The notes: generated from the letters alone by a model not told the origin. Positions 18,726-54,451 are shown, counted from the stretch's first letter. The stretch is DNA of 64,000 nt from Kiritimatiellia bacterium (GCA_017563185.1 JAFXIL010000195.1:16159-80158); one strand, 5' to 3'. Translations and numbers: made by a program.

Positions 18726-18898
18726 GTCTGTTCCTTTCGGTTGTAAGTTTGTTTGAGAGTTTGAGAGTTTGAAAGTTTGAAGGTTTGAAAGTTTGAGAGT
18801 TTGAAAGGTTGAGAGTTTGAAAGGTTGAGAGTTTGAAAGGTTGAGAGTTTGAAAGTTTGAGAGTTTGAAGGTTTGAAAGGTTGAGAGTTTGATGGGTT
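18726..18898. repeat. 8-bp microsatellite (GTTTGARR / GGTTGAGA; ~18 tandem copies) occupying the whole rodA-rng intergenic spacer
   Basis: The tract gtttgagagtttgagagtttgaaagtttgaaggtttgaaagtttgagagtttgaaaggttgagagtttgaaagg… occupies 18747-18895. On the coding (minus) strand it reads as (YYTTCAAAC)n, i.e. a CA/U-rich unstructured 5' leader directly in front of the rng start. Confidence 0.9.
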
Positions 18899-40393: not shown

Positions 40394-42805
40394 ATGAGAG
40401 AGATGTTTCCAGTTGAGAGGATAATCCCGGCAGTGGCCGCCTCGCTCGAGCGGAACCGCAGCGTTGTGCTGCGCGCGCCGCCCGGAAGCGGCAAGACCAC
40501 ATGCGTACCGCCGGCGCTTCTCGACGCGCCGTTTCTGAAGGGACGCAAGATCCTCATGCTCGAGCCGCGGCGTCTCGCGGCGAGAAGCTGCGCCGCCTTC
40601 ATCGCCCGCCGCATGGGCGAGGCGGTGGGCGACACTGTTGGATACCAGGTGCGCCTTGAGCGCAAGGTTTCGGCCCGCACGCGCCTCGAGATCGTCACGG
40701 AGGGTCTGCTCGCGCAGAGGCTCGTGTCGGATCCCGAGCTTGCCGACGTCGGGCTTGTGATCTTCGACGAGTTCCACGAACGTTCCCTGCAGTGCGATCT
40801 CGGGTTCGCGATGGCGCTCGACGTGAGGCGCGCGCTGCGCGAAGACCTGCGCATCCTCGTGATGTCCGCAACGCTCGACGTGGAGTCTGTTGCCGCCCAC
40901 ATGGGCGATGCCGACGTCCACTTCGCCGAGGCGCGCATGTTCCCGGTCGAGACGCGCTACCTGCAGGTGGAGTCGCTCGCGCCCATATCGGCACAGATGG
41001 CCGGCGCAGTGCGGCGCGCGCTAGCGGAGCCTGGCGGCGACGTTCTCTGCTTCCTGCCCGGCGAGGGCGAGATAAGGCGCTGCCAGGAGGAGCTCTGCGA
41101 CGACGCCGCGTCGCTCGGCGGCGCGGAGGTGCTGCCGCTCTACGGCGCGCTCCCGAAGGAGGCGCAGGACCGCGCGGTGGCGCGCCGGACGCCAGGCGAC
41201 GGCGGGGCGAGGCGGGTGATCCTCGCCACATCGATCGCCGAGACCTCTCTCACAATCGATGGCGTGACAACGGTGATAGACTCCGGCCTGATGCGCGTTA
41301 GCAGGTTCTCGCCAAGTTCCGGCATGAGCCGCCTAGAGACGCTGCGCCTCACGCGCGACAGGGCCGACCAGCGGCGCGGACGCGCCGGACGCGTTGCGCC
41401 GGGCGTGTGCCTGCGGCTCTGGACCGAAGCGCAGGACCGCCAGCTGCAGAGCGCCATGCAGCCCGAGATAATGGACGCCGATCTCGCCCCCGTCGTGCTC
41501 ACCGCCGCCACATGGGGCACGACGGCGCTGGACGGCCTCCCCTGGCTCACGCCGCCGCCGTGGTCCTCCTGGGAGAATGCGAAGTCCCTGCTCCGCTCTC
41601 TCGGCGCGCTCGACGGAGAAGGGCGCATCACCGAGCGCGGCCGGTCGATGGCCCGCCTCGCCGCTCATCCCCGCCTCGCGAACATGATGCTGCACGACCG
41701 CCGCTCCGCCTACTGGGCCGCCATTCTCGAAGAGGGCTCGCGTTCGCGAGAGACGGACATCTCGCGGATACATCCCACACCGAGAATGCTCGAGCTCGCA
41801 CGGCGCTGGGGATGGCGGCGCGGCGACGATCCGCCCGATCCCGCAGCGCTTGCATACGCTTTCCCCGACCGCATCGCCCGCAACCGCGGCAACGGCACGT
41901 TCCAGATGACGTGCGGACGCGGCGCGTTCATGGACCGTGCCGAGGTGCTTTCCTCCTCGCCGTTTCTAGTCTTGTGCGAGCTGGACGACCGCGGCGGCGA
42001 TGCCAAGGTGCATCTTGCCGCGTACATCGGCCTTGACGATATTGAGAGCATCTTCGCCGATGAGATCACCGAGGGCACCACAACGGAATGGGATAGGCGC
42101 GCCGAGGCGGTTAAGGCCGTCCGCCAGACGAGGCTCGGGAAGATGGTGATCGAGGAGGGCGGCCAGTCTAGTCCGCGCGAGGAGGACGTGCAGGCCGCGC
42201 TCTTTGCGGGCATGCGCCAGAAGGGCGTGGCGAACCTGCCGTGCTGGACGCCCGGTCTGCGCCAGCTTCAGGCGCGGATATGCTTTCTCCACCGCGTTCT
42301 CGCGGATGAGGCGTGGCCTGACGTTTCGGACGCGGCGCTTGAGGCTCATCTTGAGGCTTGGTTTGCAGGGTTCACGCTCGGCATGAGCCGGTGGGCGCAT
42401 CTTGCGAAGCTCGACCTTGCGGCCGTGTTCGACTGCGCGCTCGCTGAGGCGGGGCTCGACAGGCGCGCGCTCGACAGGCTTGCTCCTGTGAAGATGCAGG
42501 TGCCTAGCGGGTCGATGATGACGATCCACTACGAGGAGGACGAGCCGTTCGTGGCGGTGCGTCTGCAGGAATGCTTTGGGCTTCTCGCCACGCCGAAGGT
42601 GGCGGGTGGGAGAGTGCCGATCGTGATGCGGCTACTTTCGCCGGCGCAGCGTCCCGTGCAGGTGACTAAGGATCTCGAGGGCTTCTGGAAGACGAGCTAC
42701 GCGCTTGTGCGCAAGGACATGAGGGGCCGCTATCCAAAGCACTACTGGCCGGAGGACCCGTCAATCGCCGAGCCCACCCGCCGCGTGCGGCCAGCCAGGA
42801 GCTAG
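40394..42805 (+). CDS. hrpB: ATP-dependent RNA helicase HrpB
   Basis: Walker A is PPGSGKTT. Further markers are DEFHERS (the DEAH box), SATLD, and the HrpB-specific C-terminal domain. It is about 800 aa. Candidate starts are the ATGs at 40394 and 40403 and a TTG at 40388. Confidence 0.9.
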   Translation: MREMFPVERIIPAVAASLERNRSVVLRAPPGSGKTTCVPPALLDAPFLKGRKILMLEPRRLAARSCAAFIARRMGEAVGDTVGYQVRLERKVSARTRLEIVTEGLLAQRLVSDPELADVGLVIFDEFHERSLQCDLGFAMALDVRRALREDLRILVMSATLDVESVAAHMGDADVHFAEARMFPVETRYLQVESLAPISAQMAGAVRRALAEPGGDVLCFLPGEGEIRRCQEELCDDAASLGGAEVLPLYGALPKEAQDRAVARRTPGDGGARRVILATSIAETSLTIDGVTTVIDSGLMRVSRFSPSSGMSRLETLRLTRDRADQRRGRAGRVAPGVCLRLWTEAQDRQLQSAMQPEIMDADLAPVVLTAATWGTTALDGLPWLTPPPWSSWENAKSLLRSLGALDGEGRITERGRSMARLAAHPRLANMMLHDRRSAYWAAILEEGSRSRETDISRIHPTPRMLELARRWGWRRGDDPPDPAALAYAFPDRIARNRGNGTFQMTCGRGAFMDRAEVLSSSPFLVLCELDDRGGDAKVHLAAYIGLDDIESIFADEITEGTTTEWDRRAEAVKAVRQTRLGKMVIEEGGQSSPREEDVQAALFAGMRQKGVANLPCWTPGLRQLQARICFLHRVLADEAWPDVSDAALEAHLEAWFAGFTLGMSRWAHLAKLDLAAVFDCALAEAGLDRRALDRLAPVKMQVPSGSMMTIHYEEDEPFVAVRLQECFGLLATPKVAGGRVPIVMRLLSPAQRPVQVTKDLEGFWKTSYALVRKDMRGRYPKHYWPEDPSIAEPTRRVRPARS

Positions 42806-43854
42806 TCGTCCAGCTCCACCGACGTGGCGGCATCGGGCGCTGGCAGATCGCCACCGGCCTCCACCATGGTCGCCGCGTTGTACACGGCGTCCCAGGTCTG
42901 CAAGCGCGCCTCGCGGTCCTTCACGAGCATGTTGGCCACAAGATGCGCGAAGCCGCGCGAGAGCTCGGGCGCGAGCTGGCGGGGGTCTGGAGCGTGCGCC
43001 ATGGGGTCCACGTGCGCGCGCAGGATTTCGTCGTTGTCCATCAGCGGAAAGAGCATGCGGCCTGTGGTGAGGTGGTAGAGCGCGGCGCCGAGGCAGTAGA
43101 TGTCGGCCCGGCAGTCGAGCTCCTTGTCGCAGTATATCTGCTCTGGGCTGATGTATGCCGGCGTGCCGATCACCTCTTCCTTCTCGTCGTAGCGGTGCAT
43201 CACGGCGGTGGACTGGCAGAGGCCGAGGTCCATCACCTTCACCGTGCCGTCGCGGTCCACCATTATGTTCTCGGGCTTTAGGTCGCAGTGAACGATGCCG
43301 AAGAGATCCCACGCGTACTTCATCGCGTCGGCCACCGACTCGCAGACGATGAGCGCGTCCGACTCGGAGATGCGCTTCTTGCGGTTCTGCAGCGAGCCGA
43401 ACGTGTAGCCGTCCACATAGTCCATGATCAGGTAGTATCGTCCGTCAACGCAGTCCGCGCCGTAGCCCTGCACGATGCCCTGGTGGTGGAGGTCCGTCAT
43501 CATGCGCACCTCCGACATGAACTGGCGGATGTCCTGCCCGGTGGCTGTGAACTTTTCGTCCAGCACCTTCACGGCCACGAAGCGCTGCAGCTCCTTGTGC
43601 CATGCGCGCCACACAACGGCCATCCCGCCGCGTCCGACGATCGCGTCGAAGCGCAGGAAGGGGAGGTTGGGGGGAGTGTCGCGCGAGATTTTCTTCACCA
43701 CGCGCGTCTGCTGCACGGCGTCTGGCTCTGGGGATGGGATGCCGATCTTCGGGCGAAGCACGACGTGGGCGTTGGAGGGCCGCTTTGCGAAGCGGTATTT
43801 GCGGCGCGGCGCATCGCCGTCCGCCGCAGGGGGTGTGTTGTCTGCTGCTTCCAT
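42802..43854 (-). CDS. Ser/Thr protein kinase (Hanks-type), cytoplasmic
   Basis: Motifs: VAVKVL (the VAIK-like Lys), HCDLKPENIM (the catalytic loop), DLGL (DFG-like), and GTPAYISPE (the APE-like activation segment). It is 350 aa. Its ATG overlaps the stop of the upstream zinc-finger gene (TAATG), and its stop overlaps the convergent hrpB stop (CTAG). Confidence 0.85.
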   Translation of the reverse strand: MEAADNTPPAADGDAPRRKYRFAKRPSNAHVVLRPKIGIPSPEPDAVQQTRVVKKISRDTPPNLPFLRFDAIVGRGGMAVVWRAWHKELQRFVAVKVLDEKFTATGQDIRQFMSEVRMMTDLHHQGIVQGYGADCVDGRYYLIMDYVDGYTFGSLQNRKKRISESDALIVCESVADAMKYAWDLFGIVHCDLKPENIMVDRDGTVKVMDLGLCQSTAVMHRYDEKEEVIGTPAYISPEQIYCDKELDCRADIYCLGAALYHLTTGRMLFPLMDNDEILRAHVDPMAHAPDPRQLAPELSRGFAHLVANMLVKDREARLQTWDAVYNAATMVEAGGDLPAPDAATSVELDD

Positions 43855-44455
43855 TAGCGCTTCTCCCTCTTGGGCGTTCCGCCCTGGCCATGGCACTTTC
43901 TGCACACCACGCCGCCCCTGCCCATGCAGTCGGGGCATACGATCTTGCCTATGCCCGAGCATCCGCCGCACGGCGTCACCAGCATCTTCGCGTACTTCAT
44001 GGACGATCTCATCCCCGCGGTGGTGGTCTTCTGCGAGACGATCCATCCCGGCTTTCCGTTCTTGTTGCCTCCTCCGCTCTGGCACTTGCGGCAGGCCTGG
44101 TATCCCGTGCCATGGCACTTGCGGCAGGCCGTCACGCCGGCCCACCTGCATTCGGGGCATGCGTCCAGTCCATTGCGCTCCTCCTCTGGCGGTGCCTTCA
44201 CGAACAGTCTGTACGTCTCGTGACGGCCAGTGCCGGAACACAGCGGACACGTCTTGTACTTCACGTCGAAGCGGTGCGTGGTGAACGGCTTGCCCGGGGT
44301 GACGCCGATTTCGCCGTCGTACTGCCCGAGGTTGGGCGGAGTGAGGGATAGCGAGCGTTTGCCTCTGCAGGCGGCGCATGGCGACGACTGCATTGTGGGC
44401 TCGGCGAAGAGCGCTACGACGGCGGCGATTGCGAAGACGAACGTTGCTTGCGTTT

Positions 44456-44459
<4 letters not shown>
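43854..44459 (-). CDS. secreted Cys-rich zinc-finger protein with DnaJ-type CxxCxGxG repeats
   Basis: It has a signal peptide (MKTQATFVFAIAAVVALFAEP). At least 7 CxxC pairs are present, several as CxxCxGxG (CPLCSGTG, CRKCHGTG, CGGCSGIG, CRKCHGQG). Its start overlaps the stop of the response-regulator gene (ATGA). Confidence 0.6.
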
Positions 44460-45811
<1,352 letters not shown>

Positions 45812-45840
45812 TTACTTCCTTGTTAGGTTCATTCCTATGA

Positions 45841-46272
45841 TCAAGTATCGTCGGTAGTCATCCACCCCGGCTTGATTTCCTCTGCCATTGCGCATACAAG
45901 TGCAGCTGGACCGTATCCGATTCTGTCGGCCGCTTTCATCGCCTCTAATGCCTTCATGGGGTCTTTCTTGCAACCTTGTCCCATGCCTAATCTGATTCCC
46001 TTTTCATAAAGCATTTTCCCATGGTTGTACATTCCCGTGTTTACATGATTCATCCTGCTTCCGCGGTTTTCAGCGTCCTTGATCACGTTACTTGTCGCCA
46101 TTGCAGAAAGAAAGATCATTGATACGGTGACAGAGAGCTGTAGCCTCCATGACAGGGCACGTATCACGCGAAGAAGTGCGCGCGAACAGTCGGAACCGCC
46201 GTACCAGTCGGCAGCGATCTTGTTCTTAAGCTCTTCGAGGATGGAGAATGGATATTTCACTGTTGTGCCCAC
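45841..46272 (-). CDS. small Sel1-like repeat protein (tentative; GTG start; low-GC segment)
   Basis: 143 aa. The C-terminal half (GMYNHGKMLYEKGIRLGMGQGCKKDPMKALEAMKAADRIGYGPAALVCAMAEE) fits a Sel1/TPR-like repeat. GC is about 50% against about 68% for the genome. It is tightly spaced between the lipoprotein gene and the RR gene. Confidence 0.4.
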   Translation of the reverse strand: MGTTVKYPFSILEELKNKIAADWYGGSDCSRALLRVIRALSWRLQLSVTVSMIFLSAMATSNVIKDAENRGSRMNHVNTGMYNHGKMLYEKGIRLGMGQGCKKDPMKALEAMKAADRIGYGPAALVCAMAEEIKPGWMTTDDT

Positions 46273-46280
46273 GGCATCTT

Positions 46281-47072
46281 TTAATGCCTTTCTTTCTTTG
46301 CTTGAGGTAAATCTTTTTCCATCTCGCTTGGCAGTTTGCCAAGTACAGACTTTACATGTGACACAATAGCGGCTCGTTGCTCTAGCGTAAGACGGTGGCT
46401 TATGGAATGATATATGTGGTTGATTCTGCGAAGCTGGCTGTCTTCTTCCAGGCCCATTTCCTTTTTGAAATGTTCAAGTCGTCTATATTGTGTTGACTGA
46501 CGTCTATCGTTCAGGTTTAATCCAGGCATTGCGCTATCTGCCGCAGTTGCAGCTTGTCGTTCTTTTAGTATTACGTCCAGTAGTATGTTCCACCCCTCTA
46601 TTTTTTCTGGATTACGGAAGAATATGGTGAGCGCAGCCCATTGGCTGATATTCCATTGGTTACGCAAACGAACCTCAAGTCGATTATGTTCCTTTTCCTC
46701 TCCTTGAGCGTCATGTTCAATGTCGAAAGAAATATTCGTAGCGGCTTTAACGTAAATGCCGCTCAGAATTTCATAGAGGTTGGTCTGGGAATCTGCCGTA
46801 GCTTCCTTGCATAAATCATATGCTAGACTGTAGGAGTCGCATCCTCTAGCATCAAGCATTCCTGCTAGTTGCTGAACGCGAGTTTTAAATTTCTCTATGG
46901 CGTTACGCGAATCATCATTTTCTTCTTTTTGCGATGTAACTTGCTCGTGATGAGGCATTGCAACATTGCTCTTGATATCACTACGCTCTCTGCCGTCGCG
47001 ACATCCAACAACTACAGCAATCAGGCAGATGCTGAAGGATAGTGCCTTATCCCGTAATCCAAAGATGCTCAT
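46281..47072 (-). CDS. hypothetical lipoprotein (low-GC segment)
   Basis: The signal peptide carries a lipobox (MSIFGLRDKALSFSICLIAVVVGC). The 263-aa body is charged with no recognisable domain. Its ATG overlaps the stop of the upstream 876-aa gene (ATGA). Confidence 0.5.
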   Translation of the reverse strand: MSIFGLRDKALSFSICLIAVVVGCRDGRERSDIKSNVAMPHHEQVTSQKEENDDSRNAIEKFKTRVQQLAGMLDARGCDSYSLAYDLCKEATADSQTNLYEILSGIYVKAATNISFDIEHDAQGEEKEHNRLEVRLRNQWNISQWAALTIFFRNPEKIEGWNILLDVILKERQAATAADSAMPGLNLNDRRQSTQYRRLEHFKKEMGLEEDSQLRRINHIYHSISHRLTLEQRAAIVSHVKSVLGKLPSEMEKDLPQAKKERH

Positions 47073-49699
47073 TCTGGTAATCTCCCTGTTGTTATGATGG
47101 TGTTTGTACCGCGGATTACGTAATGTCCTGCCTTGATCACGCCAGCAGAGCCGTTTGGCAGAATTGTAAATTTCTGCTGCTCTGGAACTGCATTGGTTCG
47201 GGCTGGCATAGAGTCTCCGATCGTATTATGCTCATTCCACCCTAGTGGAATTGACCATATTATCACACCCTCCTGCCATCCGAACGAAACATCGTTTGTA
47301 AGTACGCCGTCGGGCGTCATTGGCTTAAGTATTCTGGAATTAGATGCTTCGTCCTCAAGCATGAAGAGATTGTCGTCACCTATGTTGAGCCACTCTCCGG
47401 CATGGTGGTCAGTTGTATGCGCCCATTCATCTGAGAATTCCTCGTTGCGAAAATATCCACTTACACCGCCTTCGGTGGTTGGTATCTCTTGCATGGCAAT
47501 GTTTCCGAAAGACACAGTGCGTGGGGCAATATACAGTTCTAGGAGCATACCTACGCCGCCAGCTTCGTTTTCGCCCAATCCAAAGTCAATTTTAGTTACT
47601 CGAGGACAATAGTATTTTCTCGGCTCTAGAATCATACAAGTAGTTTGGTAAGACTCATTGTTGACAGAAATTGTAAGAATACACTCGCCACCCTCTAAAG
47701 GAGCATGGAAGGAATGCGCGGTGTTCCTTAATGCAGAAATGGTCCCCTTGTTGACGTTCCAAGTGGCAGTCAATGATTTAGGCCAATGCCAGCAGGCAAC
47801 TTCTTCTTTTATCCCATAAATGTGCCTGCTCGTATTGCCGTCCAACGGCGCACTACGTATAGCCTCAAGTTGAACCTTGACTGTCGTTGCAGATGCCGAG
47901 TCTGACACAACTTCCAACAGAGACGGGGTGAATGCCGCGTTCACTATGATGTCGTCTGCTGCATCGCTGTGCCGTGCCGCTTCATAATCCACGGCAAACG
48001 ACATGCTACCTCCTGATGGAATCATTGCCATGTAGGGGAAGTGCAGATTGGCCCCGCCAGTTCGGACGAGTTGGTCAATATTCTGCGCTGTCAAGAGTAG
48101 CATGCCGCCGGTTTCTCCACCGTACACCGAGACTGAAAGAGTTGTGCTGGTGGATCGGCGCGCCACAACGTCATTCGGTGCATTCGTGTATGCGTCTTCA
48201 TAGAATACAACCGGCTTGTCAAAATCCACCGAGACGGACGCGGGCAGCTGCGGCATGCCTGGAAAGCCCGATCCAGCCGCAGCACATCCACACCACAACG
48301 ACGGTACGGCGAAAACCGCGCCTTCGAGCGTATATGTTCCGTCAATGGAAGTTCCGCCGCATTCGCAGTTGTCGCATCCCGTGAACCCAATCCAGTTGCC
48401 GCTGGCGACGTATGAACATGACGAGCCACCCGACAAAAGGCGGGGCCCGACACTGCCGCCAAATCCCGGCGTCCACGAGAATGCGCCGCCAGGATCGAAC
48501 GGCTGAACGCCGACGGCGTATCCGCCATCGTCAGGCGAGAGGTCGAACGAGAGCGGCCACTTGACTGTGAACGAGCGTCCGTCGTTGAGTCCATTTATGG
48601 TCACGACCGCGTTGCTGGGCGCTGACACGGAGAATGGCTCCGTGGATGTCACTATGTACTCAACGCCCATCAAAAGCGGAACATGGTTTGTCTCGCCGCC
48701 TCTGGCGATGACTATGGGCGAACCGAGATGAGATTCGCGGTCGGCGTTGAAGCAGATCGGCACAGGACCGCGATCCACCACGACGTCCACGAAGTAGTAG
48801 GCGTTCGTGTTCACAATGTCGGCGCATACGACATTGTACCATTCCTCGTTCGTCCCGTGCGCATCAGGTCCCGCAACGAGCGGCTCCGGGTCGAGGGTGT
48901 TTTCAAGGCCATCGTTGTCCCAGTCGAATGGAAACGCCGGTGCATATTCAACTGTCTGATTTTGATAGCGATACGCAAAGCGTCCGTCAGAGAAGAATTC
49001 CGCCTGGAAGTTGGTTATGCAGCTAACATCGCGGTTCACCGGCGAGTTCTCCCATGTGACGATCAGCGAGTTAGACGGCGATGTCGCATGCCAGAACACG
49101 TTTGAGACGCCGCCCGGCAGGAGATGCCAGTTGAACGCCGGCACCACGGCAAGCGGCGCTTCAAAAGGCGACGGAAAGTAGCATGTGCGCAGAGTCGGAC
49201 GAAACTCGCATTTGGAGAACACGGCCATTCCCTCGAGAAATCCCTCGCGCCATGGGAATGACCAGCCGACAGAAGGAATGCGCATCACATCTTCAAATCC
49301 GCCTCGCACGAGCCACGGCTCGTATGTCTGTGGCGTGCCGAAGGCATCACGCGCCACGATCTCACAACCCTCGCGCGTCTCAGCCACGCGCCAGCTGTTG
49401 GTAATGTCCGCGTCGGCAATTGGAAGCGCGATGTTCCCAGCATTGCGGTCACGCGGGACGCGTGACCCTACTGACCCTACCATGTTTGGCGGATCATTGG
49501 TGTACTTGGCGAAACCCTTGTACACTCCCGTTGCCGCCATCGCGCCCAGCAGCAGCGCCAAAACAAAGTTGTGCTCCTTCACAAGCCACGCAAGCGCATT
49601 GACGCGATTCCACACGAACCACGCCACAGCAACCGCAACACACACTCCCAGCAGTGCATGCAGTACATCTGGCGGCAAGGGATGGAGCATTTTGCACAT
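47069..49699 (-). CDS. large membrane-anchored protein of unknown function (two N-terminal TM helices; Cys/Gly-rich middle; compositionally distinct C-terminal third)
   Basis: 876 aa. TM1 is LHALLGVCVAVAVAWFVW and TM2 is FVLALLLGAMAATGVY. A DxDxDG-like acidic motif (FDWDNDGLENTLDPEP) is thrombospondin-type-3/calcium-binding-like. A Cys cluster (CSYVASGNWIGFTGCDNCECGG…CGCAAAG) follows. Codons about 1-530 are high-GC; the remaining ~340 codons are about 50% GC. The ATG at 49699 abuts the HK stop codon with a 0-nt spacer. Confidence 0.6.
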   Translation of the reverse strand: MCKMLHPLPPDVLHALLGVCVAVAVAWFVWNRVNALAWLVKEHNFVLALLLGAMAATGVYKGFAKYTNDPPNMVGSVGSRVPRDRNAGNIALPIADADITNSWRVAETREGCEIVARDAFGTPQTYEPWLVRGGFEDVMRIPSVGWSFPWREGFLEGMAVFSKCEFRPTLRTCYFPSPFEAPLAVVPAFNWHLLPGGVSNVFWHATSPSNSLIVTWENSPVNRDVSCITNFQAEFFSDGRFAYRYQNQTVEYAPAFPFDWDNDGLENTLDPEPLVAGPDAHGTNEEWYNVVCADIVNTNAYYFVDVVVDRGPVPICFNADRESHLGSPIVIARGGETNHVPLLMGVEYIVTSTEPFSVSAPSNAVVTINGLNDGRSFTVKWPLSFDLSPDDGGYAVGVQPFDPGGAFSWTPGFGGSVGPRLLSGGSSCSYVASGNWIGFTGCDNCECGGTSIDGTYTLEGAVFAVPSLWCGCAAAGSGFPGMPQLPASVSVDFDKPVVFYEDAYTNAPNDVVARRSTSTTLSVSVYGGETGGMLLLTAQNIDQLVRTGGANLHFPYMAMIPSGGSMSFAVDYEAARHSDAADDIIVNAAFTPSLLEVVSDSASATTVKVQLEAIRSAPLDGNTSRHIYGIKEEVACWHWPKSLTATWNVNKGTISALRNTAHSFHAPLEGGECILTISVNNESYQTTCMILEPRKYYCPRVTKIDFGLGENEAGGVGMLLELYIAPRTVSFGNIAMQEIPTTEGGVSGYFRNEEFSDEWAHTTDHHAGEWLNIGDDNLFMLEDEASNSRILKPMTPDGVLTNDVSFGWQEGVIIWSIPLGWNEHNTIGDSMPARTNAVPEQQKFTILPNGSAGVIKAGHYVIRGTNTIITTGRLPE

Positions 49700-50851
49700 T
49701 TATGTGAGGCTCCTGACGCGCTTTTCGAGGCGGGGGACAATTACGGTGAACTTGGTGCCTTCGCCTTCCTTGGACTCCACGTCTATGTCGCCGCCGTGTG
49801 CGCGTGCGATTCTGCGCGAAAGCATCAGGCCAAGGCCCGTTCCCTGCTTCTTCGTGGTGCGGTACGGCTCGAAAAGCGCAGCGACGGCGCTTGGCGCCAT
49901 GCCAGCGCCTGTGTCGCGGAACGACACTGTGACGGAGTCGTCGCTGGAATCGAGCGCGATCGAAAGTTCGCCGCCGTCCTTCATGGCCTCGAGCGCGTTC
50001 TTCACGAGGTTGAAGAACACCTGCTCCATCTGCGCGCGGTCGAGGGCGACTAGCGGAAGGGCGGGTGGAAGGTCGAGGGTCACGCGTATGCGGCGGCTCT
50101 CGATCTGCGGCTTGAGAGTCTCGAGTGTGTCGCGAAGGGGATCAGCAAGCGAGCCGGGCACCAGGTTGGGGCGAACGGGACGCATCGCCTCGAGGAAGCC
50201 GCGGTTGATGTCGATGATGCGGCGGATCTCGTTCTGGGCGGTCGCGACGTCTGCGAGCAGGCGCTCACGCCGGGCGGAGTCCGATTCTTTGCGGAACTCG
50301 CGGGCCATGAGCTGGAGGTTCATTGAAAGGGCGTTTAGCGGGTTGCCGATCTCGTGCGCGAGACCGGCGGCAAGGTCCTGGATGGCGTCCGTGCGCTCGC
50401 TCTCGCGCGCGTCCGCCGCGCGCGCGTGCTCCCCTGTGACATCGCGGATGATCACGACGACGGCGTTGCCGTTGGGAAGGGAGCCAAGCTCGAGTATGCG
50501 GCGCTCGGGGTAGGCGATCTCGATCTCGCAGGAGGCCTTGCGCGCCCAGCCTGCGCCCTCGGCTGAGGGGTTCAGCAGACGGTCCCAGTCCCAGCCCGGC
50601 AGCATGTCGCGTATGGGCTTGCCGCGCCCGCGCGAGAAGGGACATGCCGCCAGACGCTCGGCAATGCTGTTGGAATACATCAGCATACCGCTAGAGTCTA
50701 TCACGAGCACCCCCTCCGAAAGCGTGTTGAAGACTGACTCCAAAAACCCGATTTCGTTGGCAAGGGCCTCGAACTGATGACGACGATCTGCCGCATCGAG
50801 CTTGTCGATTCGGTCAGCGACTTTCTTGAAAAATTTCTTCATGTGCGCCAT
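49700..50851 (-). CDS. cytoplasmic PAS-domain sensor histidine kinase (NtrB-like)
   Basis: It has no TM segment. A PAS-like region is present (LSEGVLVIDSSGMLMYSNSIAERL). The H-box is LAHEIGNPLNAL. The N, G1 and G2 boxes are LVKNALEAM, DTGAGM and GTGLGL. It is 383 aa and is the first gene of the operon. Confidence 0.85.
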   Translation of the reverse strand: MAHMKKFFKKVADRIDKLDAADRRHQFEALANEIGFLESVFNTLSEGVLVIDSSGMLMYSNSIAERLAACPFSRGRGKPIRDMLPGWDWDRLLNPSAEGAGWARKASCEIEIAYPERRILELGSLPNGNAVVVIIRDVTGEHARAADARESERTDAIQDLAAGLAHEIGNPLNALSMNLQLMAREFRKESDSARRERLLADVATAQNEIRRIIDINRGFLEAMRPVRPNLVPGSLADPLRDTLETLKPQIESRRIRVTLDLPPALPLVALDRAQMEQVFFNLVKNALEAMKDGGELSIALDSSDDSVTVSFRDTGAGMAPSAVAALFEPYRTTKKQGTGLGLMLSRRIARAHGGDIDVESKEGEGTKFTVIVPRLEKRVRSLT

Positions 50852-50878
50852 TTAGTCCCAATGAAACCATTTGGCACA

Positions 50879-50887
50879 ATTATATCA
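50879..50887 (-). promoter_or_regulatory. extended -10 element TGaTATAAT on the minus strand, ~36 nt upstream of the histidine-kinase ATG (putative operon promoter)
   Basis: The reverse complement of 50879-50887 is TGATATAAT. This is the same TGATATA(A/C)T core seen at 24456 and 25628. Confidence 0.4.
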
Positions 50888-50962
50888 TTTTCTAGCTTGC
50901 AGTTCAATAGTGGATTTACATCGATTTAAAATGCCGGAGTTACTCAAAAAAGCGATTCTCTA

Positions 50963-50991
50963 TTGACGCGCGTTTAGCACAATGGTATGAT
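50963..50991 (+). promoter_or_regulatory. putative sigma70 promoter (-35 TTGACG, 17-nt spacer, -10 TATGAT) for the metallophosphoesterase gene
   Basis: TTGACG at 50963-50968 and TATGAT at 50986-50991. RBS aaggagagg precedes the ATG at 51036. Confidence 0.4.
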
Positions 50992-51035
50992 ATGGCGTGA
51001 TTTTTCAGACGGCAACGAGCAAGGAGAGGCATATA

Positions 51036-52766
51036 ATGAAACGACGTGAGTTCATTGGCGGCATGGTGGCTGTCGGCACAAGCCCGCTTTTCGGCGTGGC
51101 GGGTGACGGAGGTGAACGCATCGCCAGAATAGGACTCATTACCGACACCCATGTTGAGACGACTCTTGAAAGCTGCTCCCGCGTGCGTGCCGCGCTTTCG
51201 CTCTTCAAGGCCAAGGGTGCGGAGATGGTGATCAACTGCGGCGACATCGCCGACCGCCACTATCCCCAGGGCTATCGTTTCTACAGGCAGACCGTCAACG
51301 AGGTCTTTCCCGACCCGGCGTCGCGTCCGAAGGAGATATTCGTGTACGCCTGGCACGACCTCATCAACCATGACAAGGTGCTGGGCGGCAAATGGGATCC
51401 TGTGGCCGCATACGCCAATGTGCGCAAGCAGCTAGAGGCCCCCAATCCGCCTTTCTGCGACTTCGTGTGGAAGGGCCTTCCTTTCGTGGTGGCCACGCAG
51501 AACGTCGGCATGAAGGGTTTCCCCTCGTGGGAGGAATACGAGAAGACCGTCGATCGCGTGTGTGCCGCCAACCCCGGAAAGCCGGTGTTCGTGTGCGACC
51601 ACCTGCCGCCCGCCGGCACCACGTTCCACAGCCGCGAATGGGGCAGCGAGAGATGCCGCCGCATGCTCAACCGCTTCCCGCAGGTGGTGTCGCTTTCGGG
51701 GCACGTTCACGGCTCGCTCGCGAACGAGCGCCAGATATGGCAGGGCGAGTTCACGGCCGTTAACATCGGCTGTCTCCAGACTTGGGGCGGCTTTGCGTCC
51801 GGCTCAACCCCGCCTCGCCAGGCGAAGCCCAACTTCGGCGCGATTGTGATGGACGTCTTTGCCGACCGTCTCGAGTTCCATCGCCACGACGTGCGCGACG
51901 GCTCCGAGATCGCCCCTCCATGGGTGGTGCCTCTTCCGTTCGATCCTTCCGCCGCACCCTACGCGCCCGCCCGCGCCGCCGCGCGCGTGAGGAGACTGCC
52001 GGCATTCAATGACGGCGCGAAGGTGGAGGTGAAGCCCGTCGCCTCCGGCTTTGAGGTGAAGTTCGACGACGCCACCACGCCCCAGGCGTTCATGTACCGC
52101 ATCCAGTGCGAGCGCAGAAACGCGCTCGGCGAATGGGAGGCCTTCTCGCGGGACGACGTGTTCAGCGAATTCTGGAAGGCGAAGGCCGACCGCACAGGCG
52201 TCATCAGCCACGTTCTCGCCTCGGGCTTCTTCTCGCCGCGCGGCGAATACCGCGTGTCGGTGCGTCCGCTCGACTTCTTCTACCGCGCCGGCGCGGAAAT
52301 CGCTTCGCAGGCGGCGACCATGCCTGGAGAGCCAGCCCCCGAAGAGTTGTGGAGGATCGAGCCTCCCGTGCGCAAGCTTCGCTTCACCGAATACAATAAA
52401 GCGGTGGCGGAGACCGTAGGCGGCAGGTTCGCGCCGTCCACCGGGCAGGGCACGCTGTGGCTCCCCGAGAATGCGTTCGCGAATCTCGTGCCCGGAAAGC
52501 GCCACCAGCTTGTGCTGGACCTCGACAGCTGCCTGCCGGACGGCGACTGGTGCGGCTGGCGCGTGCGCCTCGCCCCGCGCTCGGGCGGAAGCGTGCCGGC
52601 CAGCAGCGCCCTCACGGCATCTGGCTCTCCCGGCACGCTGCGCTACGTGTTCACGTTCACAACTCCGGCGGACGGCTCGTTCCCCGCCTCCTGCAACATC
52701 ACATTCAACAACCACCTTCCCGGCGCAAGCCTTCGCGTGGCCGGAATCCGCCTTCTGCGCGGCTGA
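51036..52766 (+). CDS. calcineurin-like metallophosphoesterase with twin-arginine signal, plus C-terminal beta-rich extension
   Basis: MKRREFIGGMVAVGTSPLFG is a TAT motif. Metallophosphoesterase motifs are ITDTHV (DxH), GDIADR (GDxxDR) and LSGHVHG (GHxH). The ~250-aa C-terminal extension has no obvious domain. Confidence 0.8.
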   Translation: MKRREFIGGMVAVGTSPLFGVAGDGGERIARIGLITDTHVETTLESCSRVRAALSLFKAKGAEMVINCGDIADRHYPQGYRFYRQTVNEVFPDPASRPKEIFVYAWHDLINHDKVLGGKWDPVAAYANVRKQLEAPNPPFCDFVWKGLPFVVATQNVGMKGFPSWEEYEKTVDRVCAANPGKPVFVCDHLPPAGTTFHSREWGSERCRRMLNRFPQVVSLSGHVHGSLANERQIWQGEFTAVNIGCLQTWGGFASGSTPPRQAKPNFGAIVMDVFADRLEFHRHDVRDGSEIAPPWVVPLPFDPSAAPYAPARAAARVRRLPAFNDGAKVEVKPVASGFEVKFDDATTPQAFMYRIQCERRNALGEWEAFSRDDVFSEFWKAKADRTGVISHVLASGFFSPRGEYRVSVRPLDFFYRAGAEIASQAATMPGEPAPEELWRIEPPVRKLRFTEYNKAVAETVGGRFAPSTGQGTLWLPENAFANLVPGKRHQLVLDLDSCLPDGDWCGWRVRLAPRSGGSVPASSALTASGSPGTLRYVFTFTTPADGSFPASCNITFNNHLPGASLRVAGIRLLRG

Positions 52767-52921
52767 AAGGAGACCTATGGCAAGTCAACTGAATTCCAGC
52801 ATGTCCGCCGCGCGCGTCGCGGTCGCGGGCGTTCTCTCCCAACACCGAACGCGGCCTGATGGAGCTGGGCGAATGGCTGCCGGCAAACTGGAACGACGGC
52901 TGACCGCTGCGGGAGCAAGGC

Positions 52922-54451
52922 ATGAACTACATCCTGGCGCATGACCTTGGAACGAGCGGCAACAAGGCCACTCTGTACGCGGCTGACGGCACGGCATGCG
53001 CAAGCGTGCTCGCAGCCTACGACACGCGCTTCTTCAACGGTTGCTGGGCCGAGCAGAATCCAGACGACTGGTGGAAGGCCGTGTGCGACTCCACGCGGGA
53101 GCTGCTGGAGCGCGCGCGCGTGGACCCGCGCGACGTGGCGGTGGTGGCGCTGAGCGGGCAGATGATGGGATGCACGCCCGTGGACGCGGAAGGACGCGCC
53201 CTCAGGCCGTCCATGCTCTACTGCGACCAGCGCGCGACTGCCGAGGCAGACGCCATCCTTTCGCGGATGTCACTTGCCGACTTCTACCGCATCGTCGGCC
53301 ACCGCGTGAGCGCCTCCTACTCCCTCGAGAAGCTCATGTGGCTGCGCGCAAACGAGCCAGAGGTGTTCGCGAAGACGGCGAAGACGCTCTGCGCGAAGGA
53401 CTACGTGAACTGCCGCCTCACAGGCCGCATGGCCACCGACTACTCCGACGCGAGCGGCACGAACGCGTTCGACATAAACACATTCAAGTGGTCGGGGGAG
53501 GTTCTTGCCTGCGCCGGAATCGCGCTGGACCTCTTCCCCGAGGCGCTGCCATCCACGGCGATCCTCGGCGGAGTGACCTCCGAGGCGGCCGCCGCGACAG
53601 GGCTTCTCGAAGGCACGCCCGTAGCGGTTGGCGGCGGCGATGGAAGCGCGGCTGGCGTTGGCGTGGGATGTGTGAGGCCTGGCTCTGCGTACAACTGCAT
53701 GGGATCTTCGAGCTGGATCGCGCTCACGGTCAGGGATCCCGTTGTGGATCCTGAGATGCGCACGATGAACTGGGCGCACTGCGTGCCGGGATATCTGCAT
53801 CCGTCGGGCACGATGCAGACTGCCGGGTCGAGCTTCAAGTGGCTTGCCGAGCAGCTGTGCGCCGAGGAGACCGCCGAGGCGGCGCGCGCTGGAGGCTCGA
53901 AGTATGCGCTGATCGACGCGAAGGCCGCTTCCTCGCCCGCCGGCGCCAATGGCGTGCTCTTTCTGCCGTACATGCTGGGCGAGCGCACTCCGTGGTGGAA
54001 TCCGGACGCGCGCGGCGCGTTCGTCGGGCTCAACCTCGCGACGAAGCGCGCCGACATGCTGCGCGCGGTGCTGGAGGGGGTGGCGATGAATCTCGGGTAC
54101 ATCGTGGACATCTTCCGGAACGGCGGCGTGTCGTTCGACGGCGGCCTCAGGATCATCGGCGGAGGCGCGCAGAGCCGCGTGCTGCGGCAGATCCTCGCGG
54201 ACGCATGCGGCTGCCCGGTGCATACGCTTCAGTCCACGGCCGAGGCGACGTCCATGGGCGCCGCCATAATCGGCGGCGTGGCGTGCGGCATGTTCCCGGG
54301 ATTCGACGTTGTGGACGATCTTCTCAAGACGTCCGAGACCATCGCCCCAGACCCTTCGCGCGTCGAGTTCTACCGCGGCCGCACGAAGCTGCTTGCCAAG
54401 GCGTATAGATCGCTCGTGGGCGTGTACGCGGATCTCGCGGCGGGAATGTGA
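52922..54451 (+). CDS. FGGY-family carbohydrate kinase (xylulokinase-like)
   Basis: The N-terminus MNYILAHDLGTSGNKATLY is the FGGY N-terminal motif. The C-terminal signature is …GGGAQSRVLRQILADACG…. It is 509 aa with RBS gggag upstream. Confidence 0.85.
   Translation: MNYILAHDLGTSGNKATLYAADGTACASVLAAYDTRFFNGCWAEQNPDDWWKAVCDSTRELLERARVDPRDVAVVALSGQMMGCTPVDAEGRALRPSMLYCDQRATAEADAILSRMSLADFYRIVGHRVSASYSLEKLMWLRANEPEVFAKTAKTLCAKDYVNCRLTGRMATDYSDASGTNAFDINTFKWSGEVLACAGIALDLFPEALPSTAILGGVTSEAAAATGLLEGTPVAVGGGDGSAAGVGVGCVRPGSAYNCMGSSSWIALTVRDPVVDPEMRTMNWAHCVPGYLHPSGTMQTAGSSFKWLAEQLCAEETAEAARAGGSKYALIDAKAASSPAGANGVLFLPYMLGERTPWWNPDARGAFVGLNLATKRADMLRAVLEGVAMNLGYIVDIFRNGGVSFDGGLRIIGGGAQSRVLRQILADACGCPVHTLQSTAEATSMGAAIIGGVACGMFPGFDVVDDLLKTSETIAPDPSRVEFYRGRTKLLAKAYRSLVGVYADLAAGM

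Follow-up and report, generated by a model that had tools for sequence, protein, structure and literature searches.

Why does the guanine-plus-cytosine (GC) content fall steeply inside a single gene of an otherwise GC-rich stretch of bacterial DNA? We examined this question in 64,000 nucleotides (nt) from Kiritimatiellia bacterium (GCA_017563185.1 JAFXIL010000195.1:16159-80158), hereafter the window, in which GC drops within P876, a minus-strand gene encoding 876 amino acids (aa), and stays low through the two small genes that follow it, P263 and P143. An earlier note, made from the sequence alone, had read the drop as a native N-terminal part fused to a foreign, variable C-terminal domain, with immunity-like genes downstream. 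We found that the compositional shift is real and that the block is part of an inserted cassette, and we conclude with high confidence that the shift marks a recombining module of a new polymorphic protein family, composed of the C-terminal "head" of P876 and an adjacent lipoprotein gene. The features on which this conclusion rests are as follows.

45,780-48,050, no strand assigned: low-GC block, 46.7% GC, from a two-change-point maximum-likelihood fit
47,069-49,699, minus strand: P876, the family gene, 876 aa, with no Pfam, NCBIfam, PADLOC or PHROGs family
47,072-47,902, minus strand: exchangeable C-terminal head, aa ~600-876, an immunoglobulin-like (Ig-like) beta-sandwich (627-725) plus a terminal beta domain (734-876)
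46,281-47,072, minus strand: P263, partner lipoprotein with signal peptide and lipobox VVGC (Cys24), its start overlapping the P876 stop by 4 nt
45,841-46,272, minus strand: P143, a chimeric open reading frame (ORF) or gene remnant, unconfirmed as a gene, resembling parts of other ORFs, with a Sel1 match below threshold

The low-GC block and its gene family

The maximum-likelihood fit gave a GC content of 0.467 within 45,780-48,050, as compared with 0.627 in the remainder of 43,000-53,000, with a log-likelihood gain of 96. Other 2.27-kb segments of the window have a mean of 0.641 (standard deviation 0.021, minimum 0.586), which places the block at z = -8.4. In a 300-nt sliding profile, GC passes from 0.65-0.70 to 0.43-0.52 between ~45,700 and 48,100, and no second dip of this kind occurs in the 64 kb. 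The sharp shift that had been proposed at 45,841-48,100 from hand-counted samples thus holds on computation. The absolute values had to be revised, from ~68% for the genome and ~50% for the block to 63.3% for the window, ~63-65% for the background and ~47% for the block.

The outer edge of the block, at 45,780, coincides with the start of the downstream response regulator gene (45,811). The inner edge lies inside P876, at codon 550 in the two-change-point fit and at codon 594 in a three-change-point fit, and hence near codon 530, where it had been placed by eye. The change is steep, but it is not one step at that codon: GC at third codon positions (GC3) declines stepwise along P876, from 0.74 over codons 376-425 to ~0.60 over codons 426-600 and 0.36-0.50 over codons 650-875. 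By gene, GC3 is 0.80 in the upstream histidine kinase, 0.88 in the response regulator, 0.59 in P876, 0.39 in P263 and 0.56 in P143; the N-terminal part of P876, at 0.60-0.76, is likewise lower than the adjacent genes. The drop is greatest at third codon positions, which rules out amino-acid composition as its source. An assembly chimera is ruled out by an ENA metagenome contig (L001) that is 99.98% identical to the window over 18.9 kb, together with the 13 member sequences that the exact P876 protein represents.

Scans of P876 against Pfam, NCBIfam, PADLOC and PHROGs gave zero matches. Its family is large. A word-indexed search returned 174 homologues at E <= 1e-3, mostly full length (850-950 aa), and a profile search returned 2,956 representative clusters at E <= 1e-3, 551 of them at E <= 1e-30. 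A scan of one genome per species gave 62 family loci, nearly all in metagenome-assembled genomes (MAGs) of rumen or gut Kiritimatiellae; at least 5-9 loci are present in each of four MAGs (RUG10619, JAZUGW, RUG14821 and RGIG2765), and many of the loci are situated at the ends of contigs. Their contexts vary and include RNase E/G, MscS and ETF genes, among others. No relatives were found in IMG/VR, among the INPHARED phages or among the PLSDB plasmids, and a phage or plasmid origin was rejected on the lack of matches in these collections and in PHROGs. A phage tail fibre with its chaperone was likewise rejected, as no relatives occur in IMG/VR, INPHARED or PHROGs and the flanking genes are housekeeping genes. 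The contigs of three cassettes (L029, L043 and L061), at 58-71% GC, are labelled "Clostridiales bacterium CCNA10" or "Gemmiger sp."; mis-binning of Kiritimatiellae contigs is the probable explanation, not a genuine presence of the family in Firmicutes.

The usual cassette consists of a gene for a secreted protein of ~190-200 aa ("up"), the family gene and a tightly linked gene for a secreted or lipoprotein partner ("d1"). A d1 ORF of 166-484 aa begins at -37 to +26 nt after every one of the 32 non-redundant members with a complete C-terminus. Almost all d1 ORFs have a signal peptide and about half meet a strict lipobox pattern, while 25 of 33 d1 proteins form one BLAST-connected component. P263, whose N-terminal sequence MSIFGLRDKALSFSICLIAVVVGC meets the pattern [LVI][ASTVI][GAS]C at VVGC with Cys24 as the residue of predicted lipidation, joins the d1 family by hhalign (probability 91.8%, E = 7e-7, 194 columns). 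Its word-based search gave just four relatives, at 99, 59, 53 and 52% identity; d1 thus diverges very fast. In most loci the "up" gene directly precedes the family gene; it is absent across the entire window. Tandem cassettes occur at L013, L018 and L033, and two or three consecutive d1 genes are found at some loci (extra copies at L038, L041, L066 and L018).

The second small gene does not bear out the Sel1-like protein that had been proposed. The 143-aa ORF scores 13.8 bits against Pfam Sel1 and a 92-aa alternative scores 15.1 bits, the cut-off being 30.7, and a homologous 178-aa ORF of locus L035 has no Sel1 match. Residues 5-36 of P143 resemble the N-terminus of an 875-aa ORF in L015, and residues 83-140 are 72% identical to part of that secreted 178-aa ORF, which comes after d1 in L035. 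In the contig of a sister strain (L045), 128 unrelated nt stand in place of 386 nt of P143. On these comparisons, P143 looks like debris carried in with the cassette rather than a sound gene call.

Exchange of the head together with its partner gene

The low GC of the module recurs across the family. Averaged over 32 members, aa 91-530 have a GC content of 0.62, equal to that of the host flanks (0.62), and a GC3 of 0.73-0.76; the head (aa 621-876) has 0.50 and 0.50, and d1 has 0.49 and 0.52, respectively. Core GC exceeded head GC in all 20 loci with usable flanks, with a mean difference of 0.11 in GC and 0.225 in GC3 (Wilcoxon p ~9e-5). Head GC rises weakly with core GC (slope 0.33), and the step is kept where core GC3 reaches 0.94 (L041), 0.91 (L029) and 0.88 (L020). 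Since the step is family-wide, the shift in the window represents the module's normal signature on top of the insertion. It is speculation on our part that hyperdivergent alleles, being unable to exchange internally, escape GC-biased conversion or selection and so stay near 50% GC. The step would also serve as a clear natural case in which to ask what keeps exchangeable modules AT-rich within GC-rich genomes.

We found direct traces of the exchange when identity was compared by segment. The relative P0004 is 76-90% identical to P876 over aa 91-530 but only 26-33% over aa 621-876, whereas P0006 and P0008 reach 61-65% over aa 701-876, with 43-74% across the N-terminal part. Residues 91-495 of P876 track P0002 and P0004 (mostly 70-100% per 30-aa window) and residues 496-600 track P0003; beyond ~600, P0004 falls to 10-53% and P0002 remains at 57-87%. 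The N-terminal membrane block resembles P0014. P876 is thus mosaic, the breakpoints falling near aa 500 and 600, in agreement with the mosaic structure suggested earlier.

The clearest case is a pair of orthologous loci from two MAGs, L002 and L011, whose DNA is 97-100% identical on both sides of a replaced block of ~1.7 kb. This block starts near codon 560, stops where d1 ends and is just 22-48% identical. Across 496 locus pairs, d1 identity was correlated with head identity (Spearman 0.47, partial 0.45) to a greater extent than with core identity (0.18 and 0.11). Thus the proposal that the C-terminal part and the downstream lipoprotein gene form a variable unit was borne out across the family, as an exchangeable low-GC module of ~260-300 codons plus partner.

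The exchanged alleles are old and under purifying selection. Between L035 and L026, the core has a synonymous divergence (dS) of 0.15, whereas head and d1 are saturated, with a proportion of synonymous differences (pS) of 0.75-0.81; the ratio of nonsynonymous to synonymous divergence (omega) is 0.11-0.31 in every region. Because synonymous sites of head and d1 are saturated beside a low core dS and a low omega, the alleles are taken as old, functional and moved by recombination, and not as products of hypermutation on the spot. Fast in-situ evolution by positive selection was rejected as the main cause on the same values. A diversity-generating retroelement was also rejected: the window holds no template repeat, nor a second copy of 45,812-48,100, and the variants differ module-wide with saturated synonymous sites. 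Database proteins of 377-402 aa that start at VVFYEDAY were considered as orphan C-terminal modules, and P0344, the only one checked, corresponds to the 3' half of a gene broken by a frameshift. At that locus (L071-L073) the family gene is split by a frameshift near the VVFYEDAY motif and d1 is fragmented (93 + 100 aa). As the locus occurs on 9 contigs from several samples, it is best read as a pseudogenised cassette that persists in the population.

The earlier note had proposed looking for relatives with other C-terminal domains and other downstream genes, and such members exist. Using a hidden Markov model of the family, we collected members whose homology to P876 ends early, namely at ~612 (L027, L048 and L050), ~606 (L061 and L062), ~485 (L036), ~387 (P0088) and ~295 (L053). 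These junctions are followed by 270-690 aa of unrelated sequence in at least four classes, each present in two loci or genomes. The C-terminus of P0088 is a Reprolysin-type (metzincin-type) metallopeptidase (Reprolysin_3, 24.2 bits as compared with a cut-off of 22.4; motif HEIGHAFGLAD). Apart from this class and the CHAP-like and HEKRH-bearing heads taken up below, the remaining two classes matched no family in Pfam, NCBIfam or PDB sequence searches. By-eye motifs had suggested a lytic transglycosylase for L036 and L053 and a transglutaminase-like enzyme for L027 and L050; lacking any Pfam, NCBIfam or PDB sequence match, neither is claimed. Six of the seven alternative-head loci examined carry, directly after the family gene, a signal-peptide ORF of their own that is unrelated to d1, the exception being L061. 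The P0088 locus (L077) retains the "up" gene along with its downstream signal-peptide ORF, and several of the alternative heads also show the GC drop.

Predicted architecture and possible function

To what kind of protein is the module attached? An AlphaFold2 model of P876, built with 35 homologues as input, has a predicted local distance difference test score (pLDDT) of 77. It lays the protein out as two N-terminal helices (10-60), a beta domain (96-254), a conserved motif (257-294), an Ig-like domain (301-412), a Cys-rich element (429-472), two further Ig-like domains (488-613 and 627-725) and the terminal beta domain (734-876). Three elements of the conserved stalk stand out.

49,520-49,672, minus strand: N-terminal hydrophobic helical hairpin, two predicted transmembrane helices, aa 10-60 (AlphaFold2 helices 10-42 and 44-60)
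48,818-48,931, minus strand: the family's most conserved motif, aa 257-294, FPFDWDNDGLENTLDPEP...H...EW...C, with invariant columns F258-C292 in 35 sequences, at low pLDDT
48,284-48,415, minus strand: Cys-rich knot, aa 429-472, with invariant C445, C447, C470 and C472

The uncharged runs of the hairpin in P876 are VLHALLGVCVAVAVAWFVW and FVLALLLGAMAATGVY, and Arg/Lys residues occupy the loop between the two hydrophobic helices family-wide. These basic residues, the Ig-like domains, the conserved cysteines and the secreted partners together suggest that most of P876 is extracytoplasmic. The conserved motif contains D-W-D-N-D-G-L-E-N-T-L-D, a TSP3-like calcium-loop pattern (D-x-D-x-D-G-x-x-N-x-x-D), and Pfam TSP3_bac repeats are present in two relatives, P0341 and P0374. 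Whole-model Foldseek matches are strings of Ig domains (KIT, PrgB and S-layer proteins). At 10-12% identity, the match to PorM/GldM of type IX secretion amounts to a general Ig-like resemblance; PorM is non-polymorphic, present in a single copy and encoded with porKLN, and nothing of that kind is found here.

The head had been proposed to be foreign and variable, and a comparison with toxin-domain profiles (nuclease, deaminase, peptidase) had been suggested. Its predicted fold is two beta-sandwich domains and none of these enzymes, and it is not an unrelated foreign domain but a divergent allele of a fold common to most family members. Fourteen residues are invariant in 56 sequences (R625, G629, E632, P640, P693, P726, V729, F731, E738, H761, D783, P818, W821 and K856), which may make up an active site or else the structural core.

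These data lead to the following reading. The low-GC block is the 3' module, open to exchange, of a cassette that belongs to a polymorphic family of envelope proteins specific to Kiritimatiellae. Its members would have a two-helix N-terminal membrane anchor, a chain of beta and Ig-like domains outside the cytoplasm and a variable head at the end. Approximately the last 260-300 codons are inherited and replaced jointly with the partner gene, as old, divergent alleles, through homologous recombination between the conserved upstream stalk and the downstream flank. These alleles stay near 50% GC regardless of host GC, which gives rise to the intragenic step. In its functional extension, the head would act as an effector that the cognate lipoprotein binds and neutralises in the producer's periplasm. 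We somewhat favour this reading as a whole, a new polymorphic effector/immunity-like cassette; for the toxin/immunity function of the module taken by itself, our confidence falls slightly short of an even balance.

The organisation invites comparison with polymorphic toxins, whose diverse C-terminal domains are generated by recombination and include metallopeptidase, papain-like and non-catalytic heads (Zhang, de Souza, Anantharaman, Iyer and Aravind 2012, PMC3482391). The P876 family resembles these systems in joining a conserved N-terminal region to alternative, partly unrelated C-terminal domains that recombine at fixed junctions, in the type-specific (putative immunity) gene directly downstream, in its many paralogues per genome, and in its metallopeptidase and papain-like (CHAP-type) heads. 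It differs from them in several respects. The N-terminal region, a two-helix hydrophobic hairpin in P876, matches no known trafficking domain, and specifically none tied to type V (T5SS/TPS), type VI (T6SS/PAAR) or type VII secretion (T7SS/LXG-WXG) in Pfam, NCBIfam or PADLOC. Most heads are homologous beta-sandwich pairs in which no catalytic fold can be recognised, and the partner is a secreted lipoprotein family of 220-300 aa, not a small cytoplasmic immunity protein. Hence, of the polymorphic toxin/immunity organisation put forward in the earlier note, the swappable head with its partner gene and the alternative heads stand, whereas a toxin fold in the P876 head does not, and the function remains putative.

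In E. coli, Rhs cores are GC-rich, and their tips and downstream ORFs are AT-rich. For Rhs genes, a displacement model of the C-terminus has been described, in which a GC peak marks the tip boundaries (Jackson et al. 2009, PMC2935791). The P876 family is alike in that tip and downstream ORF are displaced by recombination while the core is conserved, in being multi-copy, and in a tip composition unlike that of the core. Unlike Rhs/YD-repeat proteins, it has no YD repeats, PAAR/VgrG association or DPxGL cleavage motif (no Pfam match), and its stalk is modelled as membrane-anchored Ig-like domains rather than a YD shell. In colicin and pyocin nuclease-immunity pairs, homologous effector domains and homologous immunity proteins co-diversify into cognate pairs, as may happen here. 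The P876 family departs from them in fold, in compartment (its partner being a periplasmic lipoprotein) and in delivery domains, and it has no nuclease motif.

Several observations weigh against an effector/immunity function. No enzymatic or toxin fold is detectable in the P876 head, for which fold searches give Ig-like matches only, leaving the terminal domain unmatched, and Pfam and NCBIfam give no match. Most family heads are mutually homologous, unlike the unrelated folds of classical polymorphic toxins. The enzyme-type assignments are in part marginal: the CHAP match of L061 and L062 is sub-threshold (E = 1.4e-4, 22.8 bits as compared with a cut-off of 26; KCNAFV...GHVGVV), and that of the L048 head follows from its HEKRH motif only. 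Delivery-system markers (PAAR, TPS/FHA, LXG, Rhs/YD and VgrG) were absent from the Pfam, NCBIfam and PADLOC scans, and no orphan head-plus-partner modules or head-only fragments were seen downstream of full genes at ~60 loci. The co-variation of head and d1 could stem from physical linkage alone. Finally, the copy in the window may be inactive, as "up" is missing and the sister-strain contig described below suggests decay. Because the head has no known toxin fold, the delivery system is not identifiable and this copy lacks "up" and may be decaying, we word the effector/immunity reading with caution.

The main rival is a non-toxic envelope or surface recognition pair, in which an Ig-rod head would dock on a cognate, possibly outer-membrane, lipoprotein. 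Such a pair would diversify under frequency-dependent selection by phages, host antibodies or kin recognition, like variable adhesins or self-recognition pairs. The same stalk, however, bears metzincin and CHAP-like heads with secreted partners of their own, which fits effectors better than adhesins, and two or three d1 genes accompany one family gene at some loci; we consider this explanation unlikely. Far less probable is a paralogous apparatus for nutrient acquisition or envelope remodelling, with varied binding or hydrolytic heads and a regulating or anchoring lipoprotein, so that diversity would reflect substrate range and not conflict. The presence of several to many paralogues in single genomes of gut bacteria that degrade glycans and proteins, the hydrolase-like character of some heads and the conserved stoichiometry of the cassette would fit it, but the strain-level replacement of alleles in near-identical loci and the ancient divergence of alleles at a single locus point to conflict or balancing selection and not to substrate specialisation, and no linkage of the cassette to transporters or carbohydrate-active enzyme clusters was seen in the contexts at hand. 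An ordinary horizontally acquired island, in which a lower-GC donor and either incomplete amelioration or two donors would produce the gradient with no module mechanism, seems marginally less probable still. It would be in keeping with the insertion of the entire three-gene block, the lower GC3 of the N-terminal part of P876 than of its neighbours and the gene fragments at the junction. As a complete explanation it is contradicted by the intragenic step in all 20 loci, in differing genomes and contexts and even at the highest core GC3, and by L002 and L011, where the head-plus-d1 block alone is replaced; the absence of the family from the phage, plasmid and IMG/VR collections also speaks against it.

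The preferred reading, a polymorphic effector/immunity-like cassette, can be extended to an unrecognised, Kiritimatiellae-specific system of contact-dependent antagonism or self-recognition. In such a system, an inner-membrane Ig stalk and "up" would present or release beta-sandwich, metzincin and CHAP-like heads, and periplasmic lipoproteins would protect the producer, with no known secretion system being used. We regard this extension as rather doubtful. To our knowledge, Kiritimatiellae are common and almost uncultured in rumen and gut communities, with nothing known of their competition or mutual recognition, and literature searches on polymorphic toxins in this group found nothing. The family, at ~3,000 sequence clusters and several to many copies per genome, is unannotated in the four family collections scanned here, and it bears the full evolutionary signature of conflict loci: near-identical genomes have swapped modules, the alleles are old and balanced, and base composition does not follow that of the host. 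Should the heads indeed be effectors, the family would provide a new platform for delivery and a set of new effector and immunity folds.

Insertion into a two-component operon

How did the cassette come to lie where it does? The relevant features are the following.

45,812-49,699, minus strand: 3.9-kb insertion between the histidine kinase gene and the sigma-54 response regulator gene, carrying P876, P263 and P143; the two genes are contiguous in orthologous contigs
49,700-50,851, minus strand: histidine kinase HK383 (PAS, HisKA and HATPase_c by Pfam), upstream flank, whose stop codon abuts the P876 ATG
44,456-45,811, minus strand: sigma-54-dependent response regulator RR451 (Pfam), downstream flank
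50,879-50,907, minus strand: promoter-like site upstream of the kinase gene, TTGAAC, 17-nt spacer and TATAAT, with TG, a consensus match only

On the minus strand, the order is HK383, P876, P263, P143, RR451, a CxxC-rich protein of ~200 aa and a Ser/Thr kinase (domains by Pfam). The kinase HK383 has hundreds of orthologues at 60-98% identity. In seven contigs (L067, L068, L069, L070, L074, L075 and L076), a histidine kinase 66-90% identical to it is followed directly by the response regulator, at spacings from a 4-nt overlap to a 93-nt gap, and the CxxC protein and Ser/Thr kinase come after the regulator in those contigs that are long enough. Two MAGs, JAZLJP (L067) and JAUNMP (L068), have the uninterrupted operon and family copies elsewhere (L025 and L027, and L020, respectively). 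Because the kinase and regulator genes are contiguous in the seven orthologous contigs, the 3.9 kb of 49,699-45,812 are a lineage-specific insertion, common only to the window, L001 and the sister-strain contig L045, where it lies upstream of the regulator gene. The N-terminal part of P876 is thus no more native to this position than the head, contrary to what had been supposed.

No terminal direct or inverted repeats flank the insertion, and a transposon-like event was rejected since neither a target duplication nor terminal inverted repeats are present. The junction between the kinase gene and P876, ATGTGCAAAATGCTCCATCC (49,680-49,720 and 45,800-45,830), resembles the uninterrupted kinase/regulator junction ATGTGAAGCAGTCCATCC of L068 (8130-8170). 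The insertion may therefore lie within the first codons of the regulator gene; the similarity is short and possibly due to chance. The copy in the window is an incomplete cassette (P876, P263 and the chimeric remnant, without "up") that was recently inserted between kinase and regulator.

Upstream of the insertion, the best promoter match on the coding strand (10 of 12 positions) is the site at 50,879-50,907, and no convincing terminator was found on that strand within the insertion. These two observations make read-through transcription from the kinase promoter plausible, so that the cassette would probably be co-transcribed from the promoter of the four-gene operon. A sigma-54 promoter driving the cassette was rejected, as no such site was found nearby. 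A functional link of the cassette to the kinase/regulator pair was also rejected: the operon never stands alongside the family elsewhere, and the orthologous operons of the seven contigs lack the cassette. The insertion interrupts a conserved two-component operon, and as such it may alter expression of the regulator and put the cassette under the operon promoter.

The operon itself (42,802-50,851, minus strand) comprises the PAS histidine kinase, the sigma-54 regulator, the ~200-aa CxxC protein, which is DnaJ zinc-finger-like, and the Ser/Thr kinase, and is conserved across the Kiritimatiellae contigs L067-L070 and L074-L076. A second, short GC dip at 50,650-51,100 (0.44-0.46) is the divergent intergenic region between this operon and a Metallophos-family gene; it has promoter-like sites on both strands and looks like an ordinary intergenic region. 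In the sister strain, the first 1500 nt of L045 (corresponding to 49,678-45,825, at 97-99% nucleotide identity) join P876 codons 8-25, 263-293 and ~760-876. These junctions imply deletions of ~710 and ~1400 nt and a frameshift, and P263 is 99% conserved there. The P876 of L045 may be in decay, or an assembler may have produced the joins at the contig end, where the first piece is exactly 55 nt.

Two further observations concern the surroundings of family cassettes. An ORF of ~926 aa without a Pfam or PADLOC match recurs beside them (L003 11150-13930; L064 2-346 and 3648-4286; L066 7147-7416). At other loci its N- and C-terminal fragments flank the cassettes, which suggests repeated rearrangement around them. 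Elsewhere in the window, a 142-bp tandem repeat of period 8/16 (GTTTGAAAGTTTGAGA; 18,751-18,892; 37% GC, strong G skew) stands directly upstream of an RNase E/G-like gene (18,725-17,037, minus strand). L064 has a flank 90% identical to that of this repeat, with a family cassette just upstream of the repeat.

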